From: Escherichia phage WPEC2
Sequence record: PV691511.1
DNA length: 64,000 nucleotides
Strand: one strand, 5' to 3'
Shown piece by piece: positions 31,943 through 40,000 of the stretch. A model generated the notes under the pieces. That model had not been told where the DNA came from and ran no database searches. It was given only the letters and a program-made list of their open reading frames with translations. The translations under genes and the position numbers were made by a program. Within the stretch, counting starts at the first letter, position 1; every line of letters starts with the position of its first letter.

Positions 31943-31956
31943 TTTTTCTGTTGTGA

Positions 31957-32016
31957 GCGGGAAACCACTTCCCGCCTTATGTGATAAACTTTACTACCTG
32001 GTTTGCCTGCTGTCAA
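31957..32016 (-). promoter_or_regulatory. promoter-like motif plus 5' stem-loop cassette
   Basis: Minus strand: TTGACA (32011-32016), ~18 nt, TAAAGT, then hairpin GCGGGAAACCACTTCCCGC (31957-31975), then ATG at 31942. Confidence 0.55.
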
Positions 32017-32017
32017 A

Positions 32018-32302
32018 TTATTTTTTAATGTTTTGCCCTACAAAGTTGATCACTTCCTTAAGCTGTCTTTCTGTCATGATCGTACCTGGTAACTCTTCCT
32101 TGATTTCTTGCGGTAAATAGATATTACCGCGCCAGGTTAACAAACAACCGTTTTGATCTTCGCAAATGGAATAAGAGAAAATCCACTCATTATCATTTTC
32201 AAGCTCCCAAAAACACAAAAAGTCTTCTTTCCCTAAGTTTTCAACGGTCAAGCATAATCCGCGACGTGCTGCATAATTAGTTAGGCTTTTTGTGATTTTC
32301 AT
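32018..32302 (-). CDS. hypothetical small protein
   Basis: 94 aa; preceded by promoter-hairpin cassette. Confidence 0.45.
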   Translation of the reverse strand: MKITKSLTNYAARRGLCLTVENLGKEDFLCFWELENDNEWIFSYSICEDQNGCLLTWRGNIYLPQEIKEELPGTIMTERQLKEVINFVGQNIKK

Positions 32303-32320
32303 AATGTTTTCTCTCTTCTT

Positions 32321-32380
32321 GTGAGCGGCACCATTGCCGCCCTACAAGATGAATATTACCAGATTAAACAGGCTTGTCAA
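32321..32380 (-). promoter_or_regulatory. promoter-like motif plus 5' stem-loop cassette
   Basis: TTGACA (32375-32380), 16 nt, TAATAT (32353-32358), hairpin GCGGCACCATTGCCGCC (32325-32341). Confidence 0.55.
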
Positions 32381-32501
32381 ACTATTTTTTCTTTTTCTTT
32401 GCTTCCAACCGTCTAAGGTTACGGCTTGATTTATTGCGCAAGGCGCTTAGATCGTCGTACCCTTTCCAAGATTGCATATCTCTAGGATTCATACTATCCC
32501 C

Positions 32502-32780
32502 TTAACGATTATAAACATTGTGGATTGCATCGAAAGCAAGCCGACCATAAACCGACAAACCAGGATCGATCCAAGTGTTATCTAACACTATTTCAAAACT
32601 AATGGAATCATCATGTAAAACATCATAGAAATTAGCATCAATGATCGTTGCAATGTCGTCTGGTGTTAGTTTGTCGTTCAACTTGCACACTGTTTCAACG
32701 TCAACACCAATTTTCCAATTTTGTAAATTAGTGGTTAACATTGTTTTCATTTCTTCGGTTGTTAATTTAACGATGGTCAT
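32502..32780 (-). CDS. hypothetical small protein
   Basis: 92 aa. Confidence 0.45.
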   Translation of the reverse strand: MTIVKLTTEEMKTMLTTNLQNWKIGVDVETVCKLNDKLTPDDIATIIDANFYDVLHDDSISFEIVLDNTWIDPGLSVYGRLAFDAIHNVYNR

Positions 32781-32801
32781 GATTTCATCTCTCTGTTAGG
32801 C

Positions 32802-32856
32802 GGGGCGCTTGTCGCCCCTACGGGATACATCTTATCAGGTTGATTCAGCTTGTCAA
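32802..32856 (-). promoter_or_regulatory. promoter-like motif plus 5' stem-loop cassette
   Basis: TTGACA (32851-32856), 16 nt, TAAGAT (32829-32834), hairpin GGGGCGACAAGCGCCCC (32802-32818). Confidence 0.55.
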
Positions 32857-36212: not shown

Positions 36213-36307
36213 GATTTTTCTCTCTTTTTGGTTAGTGGGAAGTGTTCCCGATAAAAGTTATTATGCTTATACTATCGCTCATTGTCAATAGTATAAGACT
36301 AAAACTT

Positions 36308-36520
36308 TTAACGATAATCATTATAGGCTTTATTGACCTGGCGAATGTAACATTCAAAAGCAAGATCAATATATTCATATTCCCGCATATAATCACCATA
36401 GGAAACCACATACATTTCTAACGTTTCCTCATATGTCAGAAGAATGGAATCTAAACCTAAGATCTCAGTTTTTGCAATGATAGTCATGATGATAACCTTT
36501 TTCATTATTGGCGGCACCAT
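36308..36520 (-). CDS. hypothetical small protein
   Basis: 70 aa. Confidence 0.4.
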   Translation of the reverse strand: MVPPIMKKVIIMTIIAKTEILGLDSILLTYEETLEMYVVSYGDYMREYEYIDLAFECYIRQVNKAYNDYR

Positions 36521-36566
36521 TGCCGCCCTACGTGATAAACTATACCAGAATTTTAAACAGTGTCAA
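36510..36566 (-). promoter_or_regulatory. promoter-like motif plus 5' stem-loop cassette
   Basis: TTGACA (36561-36566), hairpin GGCGGCACCATTGCCGCC (36510-36527). Confidence 0.5.
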
Positions 36567-36572
36567 ATGTTT

Positions 36573-36935
36573 TTATTCATAAATTTTACCGCTTTCGGCC
36601 CATACCATAACGCGGCGCATATTATCCCAAGTGTCTTGATCCAGGTTTAAGCCGTGCAACTCTTCGGTACTTCCCAGACCAGGTACCGCTTTGTTGTAAG
36701 TTGCATATAAGCGCCCTTGATACTCATACGCCAGAGTAAGATCCGTTTGAATCATCTTTTTAAGCATAGCATTAAGCATCATATTAGCGGCATGTTGATC
36801 ACGTTTTAGCGGTAACATGTCAATAAGGGCGCGATAAGCTGAAATATGAATATCAACCGTTTCACGTGGTAAATTTTTCATATCGTCGCGGAAAGATACC
36901 AGATTAAACATGATAGTAGTAATTTGCTTGCTCAT
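36573..36935 (-). CDS. hypothetical protein
   Basis: ATG at 36933-36935; hairpin at 36957-36978 lies inside the track's longer ORF. Confidence 0.4.
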   Translation of the reverse strand: MSKQITTIMFNLVSFRDDMKNLPRETVDIHISAYRALIDMLPLKRDQHAANMMLNAMLKKMIQTDLTLAYEYQGRLYATYNKAVPGLGSTEELHGLNLDQDTWDNMRRVMVWAESGKIYE

Positions 36936-36956
36936 TGTGTTACCCTTTTTTGTTTT

Positions 36957-37017
36957 GGCGGGGAAGTATTCCACCGCCCTATGTGATACATCTTATCAGT
37001 TTTTAAAACGTTGTCAA
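36957..37017 (-). promoter_or_regulatory. promoter-like motif plus 5' stem-loop cassette
   Basis: TTGACA (37012-37017), TAAGAT (36990-36995), hairpin GGCGGGGAAGTATTCCACCGCC. Confidence 0.5.
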
Positions 37018-37019
37018 TA

Positions 37020-40000
37020 ATATTTTTAGATAATTTTTAGCTGTATGATCCGCAAGATTTTAACTGGTTCTTACAAGAAGGTCTTGACTTAAGTCGCATC
37101 TCTCCTTTCTACGATGCTGATGAGTCTTATTCATCTGTTGTTGCAGCAAATACGCTCATTTCAGGCTTCTTCGGACCACCAGTAGCTGCTTTTAAAAATG
37201 GACTTGTCGTTGGATAGTTGGCAATCCATGCTTTATAGAAGCGAAGCAATGTTGCACTGCTCAACGGAATATTATTTGTCATTTTTGTTTCCTTCATAAT
37301 CCTGAATTCTATCTAGCACCCATTGTATACGATGTTTGTTTTTATGGCAAATATGTTTTTTATGCCCTCTCCTCTCTTGGGGCTTTGCCCCTCCTCCTTG
37401 TTATTTTTAACACCCCTCTCCGAAAGGTTAGGGGCTTTTTTCTTTTTGGATAGTTGGCAATCCATGCTTTATAGAAGCGAAGCAATGTTGCACTGCTCAA
37501 CGGAATATTATTTGTCATTTTTGTCTCCTTCATAATCCTGAATTCTATCTAGCACCCATTGTATACGATGTTTGTTTTTATGGCAAATATGTTTTTTATG
37601 TCTCCTCTTCATATGTTGGTAGTGCATGGTATGCGATCACAGGTGCCAAGTCAAAATAAAAATGACCATTGATAACAGCGCAATAAGACTCATCAGCATC
37701 GTAGAAAGGAGAGATGCGACTTAAGTCAAGACCTTCTTGTAAGAACCAGTTAAAATTTAATAAGACTCATCAGCATCGTAGAAAGGAGAGATGCGACTTA
37801 AGTCAAGACCTTCTTGTAAGAACCAGTTAAAATTTTCAGGATAGTTGGCAATCCATGCTTTATAGAAGCGAAGCAATGTTGCACTGCTCAACGGAATATT
37901 ATTTGTCATTTTTCTGTCAGCTTGTTAATCATTGGTGATAAATAGCGTTTACCAACGTAAAACAGCACGCCAACTGATGCAACGGCGGCGATTTCATGTA
38001 AGGAGGAAGGTCGCGCGGTGTCATAGTAGGTACCTATAATAGCAATAGCGGCAACGGCGGCAATATGCTTGACGGATGATTCCATCCTTTAAGGATTTTA
38101 CCGCCATTGTGCAACCGTCGCCAAATGCTTCATTTTTATGGTCTATCACTTCATAAGCGCCCAGTTTGCTGCTGTTAGGCACCATTAACGCGAATACATC
38201 ACCAACAACCAGGTTTTCCTGTTGTTGCAGCAAATACGCTCATTTCAGGCTTCTTCGGACCACCAGTAGCTGCTTTTAAAAATGGACTTGTTATTCTTCA
38301 TTCTCCTCTTCTGCATTTCTTATATATGGTGAAACACCGTACTCTTTAGCTACTTTAACCCAATCGTCCGGATAGTTGGCAATCCATGCTTTATAGAAGC
38401 GAAGCAATGTTGCACTGCTCAACGGAATATTATTTGTCATTTTTCTTTCCTTCATAATCCTGAATTCTATCTAGCACCCATTGTATACGATGTTTGTTTT
38501 TATGGCAAATATGTTTTTTATGTGTTACAGGGTGCACCTTTTAATAAATGGGAAGAGGCTGTAGGAGAAGACCCTAGAATTGAAGAAGAATTTGACAAAG
38601 ATTTTAACTGGTTCTTACAAGAAGGTCTTGACTTAAGTCGCATCTCTCCTTTCTACGATGCTGATGAGTCTTATTGTTATCAATGGTCATTTTTATTTTG
38701 ACTTGGCACCTGTGATCGCATACCATGCACTACCAACATATGAAGAGGAGACTAACAATGGCTAACAAAGAACCACACGTATATACTGCACTGGTAAAGC
38801 ACTTGAACAAAGAACGTAACAGGATCACTGTTGTTGCAGCAAATACGCTCATTTCAGGCTTCTTCGGACCACCAGTAGCTGCTTTTAAAAATGGACTTGT
38901 CGTTCTTCATTCTCCTCTTCTGCATTTCTTATATATGGTGAAACACCGTACTCTTTAGCTACTTTAACCCAATCGTCCCCTACAAAATTGCGCATATTTT
39001 ATCCTCCTCATATCTGATCTTATCACAAAATGATATACAATTGCAAGCATTAAAAAGAAAAAAGCCCCTAACCTTTCGGAGAGGGGTGTTAAAAATAACA
39101 AGGAGGAGGGGCAAAGCCCCAAGAGAGGCCCTCTCCTCTCTTGGGGCTTTGCCCCTCCTCCTTGTTATTTTTAACACCCCTCTCCGAAAGGTTAGGGGCT
39201 TTTTTATTTTTCTGTTGTTGCAGCAAATACGCTCATTTCAGGCTTCTTCGGACCACCAGTAGCTGCTTTTAAAAATGGATTTGTCATTTTTCATTCTCCT
39301 CTTCTGCATTTCTTATATATGGTGAAACACCGTACTCTTTAGCTACTTTAACCCAATATCACCGCCGTTGCATCAGTTGGCGTGCTGTTTTACGTTGGTA
39401 AACGCTATTTATCACCAATGATTAACAAGCTGACACCGATCGCCGCCGTTGCATCAGTTGGCGTGCTGTTTTACGTTGGTAAACGCTATTTATCACCAAT
39501 GATTAACAAGCTGACACCGACAGATATTGCCGCCGTTGCCGCTATTGCTATTATAGGTACCTACTATGACACCGCGCGACCTTCCTCCTTACATGAAATC
39601 TGTTACAGGGTGCACCTTTTAATAAATGGGAAGAGGCTGTAGGAGAAGACCCTAGAATTGAAGAAGAATTTGACAGAGATTTTAACTGGTTCTTACAAGA
39701 AGGTCTTGACTTAAGTCGCATCTCTCCTTTCTACGATGCTGATGAGTCTTATCCTCTCTTGGGGCTTTGCCCCTCCTCCTTGTTATTTTTAACACCCCTC
39801 TCCGAAAGGTTAGGGGCTTTTTTATTTTTCATGCTTGCAATTGTATATCATTTTGTGATAAGATCAGATATGAGGAGGATAAAATATGCGCAATTTTGTA
39901 GGGATAGTTGGCAATCCATGCTTTATAGAAGCGAAGCAATGTTGCACTGCTCAACGGAATATTATTTGTCATTTTTCTCTCCTTCATAATCCTGAATTCT

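Follow-up and report, generated by a model that had tools for sequence, protein, structure and literature searches.

Composite intergenic units that combine an early promoter with a stem-loop have been described in the hyperplastic, ORFan-rich regions of T4-type phages as promoter-early stem-loop (PeSL) cassettes. In them a sigma-70-like early promoter is accompanied by an AT-rich stretch, by a G-run/C-run stem-loop that takes one of five positions, and by a Shine-Dalgarno (SD) sequence with its ATG (PMC2839356; PMC4122927). PeSLs were reported from the phages RB49/phi1, PST/T4 and nt-1/KVP40 (Arbiol et al. 2010, PMC2839356; Comeau et al. 2014, PMC4122927), and their stem-loops, which the authors consider terminators, lie mostly between or overlapping the -35 and -10 elements or upstream of them (PMC2839356; PMC4122927). 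Here we describe a repeated unit of promoter and GC-rich hairpin that precedes small minus-strand genes at positions 31,950-37,020 of the window, the whole stretch of 64,000 nucleotides (nt) of Escherichia phage WPEC2 (sequence record PV691511.1) that was analysed. The units share with PeSLs their composition, genomic setting and probable evolutionary role, and differ in lineage, hairpin position, core and probable hairpin function.

Like a PeSL, the element is a composite intergenic unit with a near-consensus sigma-70 promoter, an AT-rich upstream stretch, a GC stem-loop whose 5' arm is rich in G and whose 3' arm is rich in C, and an SD sequence with ATG. It occurs in many copies of one orientation in an ORFan-rich, plastic early region and may be tied to differences in gene content between close relatives; a window variant at 35584 further resembles the PeSL subclass in which the stem-loop overlaps the -10. 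PeSLs belong to T4-type myoviruses, whereas the lineage here is Stephanstirmvirinae and Vequintavirinae. The hairpin is situated here at one fixed spot, 10-12 nt after the -10 and within the predicted transcript, possesses an invariant GCGG/CCGC core next to a conserved CAC[A/G]TAG start region, and is, judged from its sequence, unlikely to be an efficient terminator. The original prediction, made from the letters of the window alone, had likened the units to PeSLs; all compositional and setting features of that comparison were found, and it falls short in the lineage (Stephanstirmvirinae) and in the fixed, transcribed position of the hairpin. A portable unit of promoter, hairpin and ribosome-binding site (RBS) in front of ORFans is not peculiar to T4-type phages, and it is more stereotyped in phAPEC8-like and rV5-like phages, which are widely used in phage-therapy collections.

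The mRNAs of ompA, papA and T7 gene 10 carry leaders with 5'-terminal stabilising stem-loops. The present units resemble these in that a stable hairpin lies a few nt from the (here predicted) 5' end and is followed by an unstructured leader with the SD sequence, and in that the stem sequence is free to vary provided that pairing is kept. Unlike those leaders, the element recurs about 20 times within a stereotyped promoter cassette, and both its 5' end and the stabilisation are predicted. With moderate confidence, we read the units as sigma-70 early promoters whose transcripts would be stabilised and insulated by a hairpin at their 5' terminus; the repeats would supply homology for gene shuffling as well.

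Anatomy and copies of the cassette

The unit is about 80 nt long and follows a constant order: an A-rich stretch, TTGACA, 16-17 nt, a TAnnnT -10, the sequence nTAtCAC[A/G]TAG, a GC hairpin, an open A-rich leader with an SD sequence, and ATG. The conserved spacer after the -10, the GC hairpin and the RBS with ATG of the original prediction are all present. It lies upstream of 13 of the 15 minus-strand gene starts in 31,950-37,020, in agreement with the claim that nearly every small gene there is preceded by it, and the remaining two genes are translationally coupled to their upstream neighbour. The tally for this segment is 11 canonical cassettes (-35 starts at 37017, 36566, 35840, 35288, 34852, 34476, 33607, 33229, 32856, 32380 and 32016), one without a -35, and two variants. 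The intergenic space is wholly taken up by the cassette. The plus-strand copies expected in 59.6-62.1 kb were borne out at 59993, 60792 and 61999. The estimate of about 30 cassettes proved to be inflated by a scrambled assembly, and about 20 distinct ones are left once they are mapped onto the natural gene order.

The promoter is well delimited. The strict composite TTGACA-N15-19-TANNNT-N3-12-AYRTAGGG has 9 matches in the window against 0.01 expected from shuffles, and a promoter scan of 31,400-37,200 returned 13 sites with at least 10 of 12 matches, all on the minus strand, which is the coding strand. Twelve of these 13 sites are at cassettes (11 distinct, with 32380 appearing twice), which supports the TTGACA-like promoter first proposed; the odd site, at 33919 (TTGCCA-17-TACAAT), is inside a junk insert. 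The -10 is TG-extended in five of the 13. The 20 nt before the -35 are 76% AT and 50% A in a genome of ~61% AT, and the stop codon of the upstream gene falls within this A-rich stretch, a few nt before the -35.

Every copy has a hairpin; the folding z-scores, relative to dinucleotide shuffles, range from about -2 to about -6. Scanning and folding place the beginning of the stem 10-12 nt after the -10 in nearly all copies, corresponding to about +3 to +5 of the predicted transcript, and the distance from hairpin end to start codon has a median of 19 nt (interquartile range 17-21), with an SD-like purine run between. A covariance model trained on phage phAPEC8 alone finds 24 window sites at E<=0.1. 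The genes behind the cassettes belong to PHROG families of unknown function in 10 of 10 tested cases. The individual copies are as follows.

36933-37017, minus: cassette; -35 TTGACA 37017-37012; -10 TAAGAT, TG-extended, ends 36990; hairpin 36979-36956 GGGCGGTGGAATACTTCCCCGCCA; ATG 36935
36485-36566, minus: cassette; -35 36566; -10 TATAGT ends 36539; hairpin 36528-36509 GGGCGGCAATGGTGCCGCCA; start codon ATG 36487
36210-36288, minus: variant cassette; TTGACA-17-CATAAT; short hairpin GGGAACACTTCCC with a GGGAA/TTCCC stem and without the GCGG core; ATG 36212
35752-35840, minus: cassette; -35 35840; -10 TAAACT ends 35813; hairpin 35801-35778 AGGCGGCGGAATGGTCCACCGCCT with a C/A mismatch; ATG 35754
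35511-35584, minus: variant; TTGACT-16-TATAAT; 9-base-pair (bp) inverted repeat TATAGCGCC (35572-35564)/GGCGCTATA (35555-35547) around the -10; ATG 35513
35210-35288, minus: cassette; -35 35288; -10 TAAACT ends 35261; hairpin 35250-35230 GGGCGGGAACTGTTCCTGCTC with one G-U pair; ATG 35212
34777-34852, minus: cassette; -35 34852; -10 TAAATT ends 34825; shorter discriminator; hairpin 34817-34798 TGGCGGCAATGGTGCCGCTA; ATG 34779
34678-34735, minus: truncated copy without -35; -10, spacer, hairpin, SD, ATG 34680; cut at block boundary 34740, complete copy at 63040
34415-34476, minus: cassette without a gene behind it; identical to the 47140 copy; adjoins a junk insert of ~77-nt modules, ~33,620-34,400
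33530-33607, minus: cassette with weak -35 TTGATC; -10 TATAGT ends 33580; hairpin 33570-33551; ATG 33532
33147-33229, minus: degenerate cassette; TTGCAA-16-TATATT; hairpin 33192-33166 with internal loop GGGCGGCGGGAATAGTTCCCAAGGCAA; ATG 33149
32778-32856, minus: cassette; -35 32856; -10 TAAGAT ends 32829; hairpin GGGGCGACAAGCGCCCC, core 32817-32803; ATG 32780
32300-32380, minus: cassette; -35 32380; -10 TAATAT ends 32353; hairpin 32342-32323; ATG 32302
31955-32016, minus: cassette; -35 32016; -10 TAAAGT ends 31988; hairpin 31977-31955; joined at ~31946-31949 to a non-natural gene start (assembly junction)
59993-60075, plus: cassette; hairpin 60031-60054 GGGCGGGGCAATAAGGCAACGCCC with a 2x2 internal loop; ATG 60073
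60792-60871, plus: cassette; hairpin 60830-60849; ATG 60869
61999-62074, plus: cassette; hairpin 62035-62055 AGGCGGGAATAGTTCCCGCTA; ATG 62072
59815-59832, plus: promoter-less family hairpin GGCGGGATTAATCCCGCC; straight after a stop codon, ahead of SD/ATG; no T-tail
44750 (plus), 45201 (minus), 47140 (minus), 47387-47431 (plus), 47598 (minus), 49445 (minus): further copies in or beside arrays of k=77 pieces; several are exact duplicates, hence non-independent
61662 (minus), 62885 (plus), 63040 (minus): near-identical, non-independent copies at block boundaries
61064 (plus)/61160 (minus): head-to-head pair with one hairpin in common, 61102-61121; at a block boundary; loop of the minus copy reversed, CCAT for ATGG

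For the gene behind cassette 36566, the PHROG match starts at residue 12 of a longer open reading frame (ORF), and ATG 36487 is the start. The variant at 35584 is kept in phage ASO2A, where it is annotated as a terminator, and its inverted repeat (35,547-35,584) could occlude the promoter in single-stranded form. We also note a superficial likeness of the cassette start, e.g. at 34,415-34,450 (minus strand, CACATAGGGGCGGGAAGTGGTTTCCCGCTC), to the T7 phi10 promoter and leader (TATAGGGAGACCACAACGGTTTCCCTC), whose transcript also begins with a stem-loop; the likeness is probably convergent.

Relatives and selection on pairing

The segment 31,950-37,020 aligns with Phapecoctavirus genomes, the phAPEC8-like E. 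coli myoviruses of ~150 kb in the subfamily Stephanstirmvirinae, at 92-94% identity over 73-86% of its length. The unit is also present in Justusliebigvirus and in rV5-like phages (Vequintavirus). Clean genomes used for comparison were the whole of phAPEC8, the early regions of ESCO13, ASO2A, VEcB and FV3, and two IMG/VR contigs. The proposed covariance-model search of the window and its relatives, when run, gave 16 matches in phAPEC8 besides the 24 window sites, and the phAPEC8 family comes to about 19 members with degenerate copies. These lie at 143.7-147.7 and 0.2-4.5 kb, which is the early region across the record ends, with one extra at 121.9 kb before the terC operon; neither the covariance model nor the hairpin scan found a member in the structural block at 50-100 kb. 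ESCO13 has about 25 small genes with spacers of ~80 nt, in which only ribosome-binding sites are annotated.

Annotation pipelines have already caught parts of the element. In the phAPEC8 record the -35/-10 appears as "host dependent promoter (MEME)" and the hairpin's 5' half as "promoter (PHIRE)", whereas in the ASO2A record the same hairpins are called "rho-independent terminator" directly after "promoter". Going by the anatomy, neither the phage-promoter label nor the terminator label in the public records seems right for the hairpin. A description of the composite unit in this phage group was not found in the literature, including that on Phapecoctavirus, Vequintavirinae and WPEC1.

A minority of family hairpins has no recognisable promoter, follows a stop codon, precedes SD/ATG and lacks a T-tail. 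Such hairpins are found at 59815-59832 (plus) in the window, at 2377, 3550 and 3833 in phAPEC8, at 6531 in the reverse complement of ESCO13 and at 8820 in VEcB, and they are conserved across relatives, the window copy having orthologues in phAPEC8 (2377), ESCO13 and VEcB.

Selection acts on the hairpin as a structure, and the best evidence for this is found in FV3, an rV5-like phage of the other subfamily, in which the slot 9-12 nt after the -10 is occupied by GGGGCAA/TTGCCCC, GGGGAG/CTCCCC, GGGGGG/CCCCCC and GGGCC/GGCCC, none followed by a T-tract; the presence of unrelated stems at the same slot indicates that a hairpin at that position is selected. Within the family, a curated alignment of 67 distinct copies (42 distinct hairpins) was anchored on the first GCG, with mutated positions kept in homologous columns and N as placeholder. 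In this alignment 89.8% of cells are paired, where shuffles give 79.6+/-0.9% and slid registers 35-61%; cells changed on both sides number 57 against 20.5, and the covariation score is 0.220 against 0.098, none of 500 shuffles reaching any of the three observed values. The four core pairs of GCGG/CCGC (G-C, C-G, G-C, G-C) are invariant, and the inner pairs covary (GC 36/CG 28; AU 42/GC 19/CG 3; AU 30/GC 3). The number of pairs with double changes, 4 against 3.2, is within the shuffle range.

The claim that pairing is kept by compensatory changes thus stands for two or three inner pairs; the core pairs never vary, and the covariation reflects few hairpin types rather than many independent events. 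In statistical terms, the proportion paired, the double-change cells and the score exceed the shuffles and the count of double-change pairs does not. A model-made alignment of 83 matches, from the model trained on phAPEC8 alone, gave 80.4% against 74.2% paired and 5 double-change pairs against 3.0 (3 of 500 shuffles). Conservation of sequence is confined to the four core pairs and the preceding CAC[A/G]TAG, which are kept in 59-66 of the 67 distinct copies; the inner stem and the loop (ATGG, GTGGT, TAG, TAC, CAC, ACAAG) vary. Individual changes are readily followed: the C/A mismatch of one hairpin type has become T-A in VEcB and is compensated by an inserted G in ASO2A, and GCGGGAA/TTCCCGC in one copy corresponds to GCGGGGA/TCCCCGC in another. 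The distance between the GCGG and CCGC half-sites ranges from 5 to 14 nt among copies, which a hairpin accommodates and a rigid double-stranded DNA operator for a dimeric repressor does not; the operator is ruled out on this ground.

Other alignments were less informative. MAFFT with RNAalifold on 24 window copies gave only three pairs because the 3' arms were misaligned, and RNAalifold predicted nothing on the model-made alignment because the inner stems fall in insertion columns. A first covariance model, built on an N-padded alignment, was weak (0.7 bits per position, matches of 13-20 bits) and only bootstrapped the gapped phAPEC8 model. A weak model match at 14,898-14,942 (minus), equivalent to phAPEC8 23,111-23,155 and AT-rich (GC 0.29), was rejected as a family member, as it scores only because it is present in the bootstrap alignment. 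At phAPEC8 145,900 (45,900-45,965 in the coordinates of the piece analysed) a hybrid hairpin was observed, with a 5' arm of the GAGCGGCGGAA type and a 3' arm of the TTTCCCGCTC type, and the promoter of that cassette is orthologous to the ESCO13 copy with GGGCGGGAAATGGTTTCCCGCTC. The hybrid suggests a short gene-conversion tract within the stem.

Possible roles of the hairpin

The unit may be a self-contained expression cassette for early genes, in which an A-rich, UP-like stretch and a strong host sigma-70 promoter, often TG-extended, are joined to a start site and a leader. The predicted +1 is the conserved purine of CAC[A/G]TAG, at a pyrimidine-purine step 7-8 nt after the -10. The leader would then consist of 3-4 free nt, a GC hairpin of 8-10 bp, and about 19 nt of open A/C-rich sequence with SD and ATG. 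Folding of 56 predicted leaders from +1 through the start codon gave the hairpin as the dominant structure, with a mean probability of being unpaired of 0.74 in the SD window; 0-5 free nt (median 3) precede the hairpin, and at most 4 in 51 of the 56, counted from the predicted +1. RppH and RNase E require single-stranded 5' termini, which explains stabilisation by 5' structure (review PMC3997798). A hairpin at the 5' end of the RNA would hinder both enzymes, allowing short early mRNAs to last longer, and would keep the ribosome site clear of upstream context. In read-through transcripts the same hairpin, just 3' of the preceding cistron, would act as a barrier to 3' exonucleases. The promoter-less hairpins after stop codons imply that the hairpin must also work within read-through transcripts; in these copies it would serve only as such a barrier, or as a 5' end after processing. 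Some 20 near-identical units of ~85 nt in one orientation would, in addition, offer homology for recombination that swaps or deletes ORFan modules. RNase III sites were considered and rejected, stems of 8-10 bp being too short.

Several points weigh against the stabilising leader. Wobble pairs, a test for RNA of the sense strand, are only weakly asymmetric (17 G.U against 9 A.C/C.A). The searchable literature holds no transcript data for this phage group, and +1 is thus predicted. According to Emory, Bouvet and Belasco (1992), who reportedly found this, no more than 2-4 nt may separate a stabilising stem-loop from the 5' end, and a free tail of 3-5 nt puts the hairpin at the edge of the reported protective range; RppH can act on 2-3 unpaired nt. 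A primary 5' end cannot be the sole use of the hairpin, given the promoter-less minority. That the GCGG/CCGC core never varies hints at sequence-specific constraint or concerted evolution, which plain stabilisation does not need. The PeSL authors observed strong terminator-like reporter activity of one RB49 stem-loop (PMC2839356). As to gene shuffling, the enrichment of breakpoints described below cannot be separated from selection for intergenic breakpoints, and it derives from non-independent pairwise comparisons.

The alternative that survives best, though unlikely, is that the hairpins are terminators or attenuators isolating each small gene transcriptionally, which is the function favoured by the PeSL authors and implied by the ASO2A annotation. 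With 6-10 bp rich in GC and a loop of 3-5 nt, the hairpins look like intrinsic terminators, and prediction programs call them so: the ASO2A record gives them as rho-independent according to WebGeSTer and TransTermHP. One RB49 PeSL stem-loop cut lacZ expression as much as rrnB T1 (PMC2839356), and the promoter-less hairpins directly follow stop codons. Unlike intrinsic terminators, however, the cassette hairpins are followed by A/C-rich tails rather than a T-tract, and they lie downstream of a promoter and immediately upstream of SD/ATG. An efficient terminator at +4 to +25 would abort its own mRNA at ~25-30 nt, before the gene, and a device for stopping upstream transcription would naturally be placed ahead of the -35, where the PST and nt-1 PeSLs have it. 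Among the 193 GC-rich hairpins of an unbiased phAPEC8 scan, 17 follow a sigma-70-like promoter at a distance of 5-17 nt, a T-tract (at least 5 T in the next 8 nt) is present after 33, and both features coincide in one, i.e. in 1 of the 17 promoter-linked hairpins. A terminator scan of the window region listed no sense-strand cassette hairpin as terminator-like. By their sequence the cassette hairpins are not canonical intrinsic terminators, as the original prediction had argued from the missing U-tract.

Rather less likely is that a phage-encoded factor binds the hairpin, whose GGGCGG...CCGCYC base is invariant; candidates would be a repressor for translational or early-to-middle shut-off, or an RNA element of the nut boxB or put type that acts on RNA polymerase in antitermination. 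The sequence conservation of core and CAC[A/G]TAG next to a variable inner stem and loop agrees with this, as does the fixed place right after early promoters, where lambda nut (boxA/boxB) and HK022 put likewise encode an RNA hairpin. Recognition of the boxB type depends on the loop, however, and the loops here are not conserved. Unlike nut and put, the element has no boxA-like partner and consists of a single short hairpin before every small gene, not once per operon. Rfam covariance models gave no match to the window at the gathering score, and the sole match in the region at E<=1 was to a miRNA model, by chance. The FV3 stems are entirely different, concerted evolution of repeats can account for the invariance of the core, and no candidate protein was identified.

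It appears quite improbable that the primary role is played at the DNA level, with the inverted repeat as a site of recombination, either through extrusion of a hairpin or cruciform or as the target of a recombinase, by which ORF cassettes are mobilised in the manner of PeSL mini-circles or integron attC sites. Across five early regions, 57 of 171 synteny-block ends fall within cassettes (+/-10 nt) against 25 expected from coverage, an enrichment of ~2.3-fold from non-independent pairwise comparisons that is confounded with intergenic location; the other two thirds of the ends lie outside cassettes. This enrichment favours a DNA-level role and fits modular shuffling of the PeSL style, but it is equally expected from plain homologous recombination of ~85-nt repeats together with selection against gene-disrupting, i.e. 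for intergenic, breakpoints. The joining of arms of two types in the phAPEC8 145900 hybrid and the conserved outer cores around a variable centre, as in attC, point the same way, and mini-circles of PeSLs were found by inverse PCR in RB49 and phi1 (Comeau et al. 2014; Arbiol et al. 2010). The strict coupling to a promoter at fixed offset and to SD/ATG, on the other hand, points to expression; no recombinase was found next to the cassettes in the annotated relatives, nor is one otherwise linked to them, and an apparent inversion junction of head-to-head copies at 61.1 kb is an assembly artefact. A still longer shot is the bolder version in which a phage factor recognises the structure of the hairpin strand-specifically and thereby captures, excises or swaps ORFan modules, as an integron-like or mini-circle system, with the role as 5' leader secondary; if true, large coliphages of two further subfamilies would have a gene-cassette system at work in their early regions.

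That the conserved GTAGGGCGGCAATGGTGCCG motif is itself a phage-specific promoter is barely credible: the phAPEC8 record does tag these 20-mers "putative promoter determined with PHIRE", but all that PHIRE detects is that a 20-mer is over-represented, every occurrence of the motif directly follows a near-consensus sigma-70 promoter, the motif makes up the 5' half of a hairpin that varies among copies and gives way to other stems in FV3, and this group is not known to encode an RNA polymerase of its own.

If the leader reading holds, the units would be compact, naturally insulated and strong expression cassettes that could serve phage engineering.

Assembly of the window

The window is a mis-joined k=77 assembly of the type also represented by phages WPEC1, WPEC4 and WPEC6. 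The segment 31,950-37,020 is at least 99% identical to all three. Against WPEC1 the window as a whole is 99.8-100% identical, but only blockwise, with block order and strand scrambled, and two window blocks overlap by exactly 77 nt in WPEC1 coordinates. Compared with phAPEC8, the window is pieced together from more than 15 blocks, which correspond to 109-118, 8-32, 135-147 and 0-7 kb and are mixed in order and strand. It contains one natural early region that is cut at cassette positions and whose pieces are wrongly re-joined. Block junctions (e.g. 6118/6119, ~31,946, ~33,698, ~34,740, ~37,054, 41,279, 44,496, 49,389, 61,120, 61,679 and 62,954) coincide in many cases with repeated cassettes, and the cassettes themselves probably broke the assembly.

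Maximal exact repeats in the window cluster at lengths of 73-78 nt with a mode of exactly 77 (123 of 569 pairs), whereas repeats of 45-64 nt are almost absent and those of 85-144 nt absent. Arrays of ~77-nt modules, in tandem and in both orientations, occupy 33,620-34,740, 37,050-41,400, 44,400-49,500, 58,700-59,700 and parts of 61,000-63,150. In phAPEC8, ZCKP1 and others, the tandem modules all map to a single stretch of 158 nt within an ordinary gene. Such arrays are otherwise found only in WPEC1/4/6, at 20-24 places per record; these records, of 155-161 kb, come from one laboratory and one host strain. Seventy-seven is a common default k of assemblers. The repeat-length peak and the collapse of the modules in relatives indicate that pieces of a de Bruijn graph (k=77) were joined with their overlaps untrimmed.

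The "mosaic arrays" are accordingly assembly artefacts, not biology, and long ORFs crossing them are untrustworthy. The cassette copies that had been reported inside mosaic arrays and "track ORFs" are artefacts of the same origin, and other findings from this window that concern such arrays or ORFs should be treated likewise. This is the most useful by-product of the analysis, and it illustrates how repeats of ~85 nt disrupt assembly from short reads. Copies located at 44.7-49.5 kb and 61-63 kb are either duplicates or products of junctions, and cassettes 34476 and 32016 have been joined to foreign sequence. The ORF behind cassette 34852 (34483-34779, 98 amino acids) is chimeric because of the junction at ~34740.

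The plus-strand block at 59.6-62.1 kb is a piece of the early region inverted by the assembly; the block of cassette 59993 belongs here, and its phAPEC8 counterpart is co-oriented with the other cassettes. The head-to-head pair at 61,064-61,160 is unique to this sequence. An inversion crossover within its hairpin was considered and rejected, the pair sitting on an assembly block boundary; the assembler seems to have switched strands there at a palindrome.

A second promoter/leader module, without a hairpin, was also observed. It consists of TTGCCA-17-TACAAT followed by GGGTGCTAGATAGAATTCAGGATTATGAAGGAG and is repeated nine times on the minus strand, at 33,919, 37,350, 37,586, 38,508, 40,040, 41,032, 47,744, 47,821 and 63,121. 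These repeats are artefactual copies of the natural leader of the gene encoding MTNNIPLSS... (31,574-31,942).

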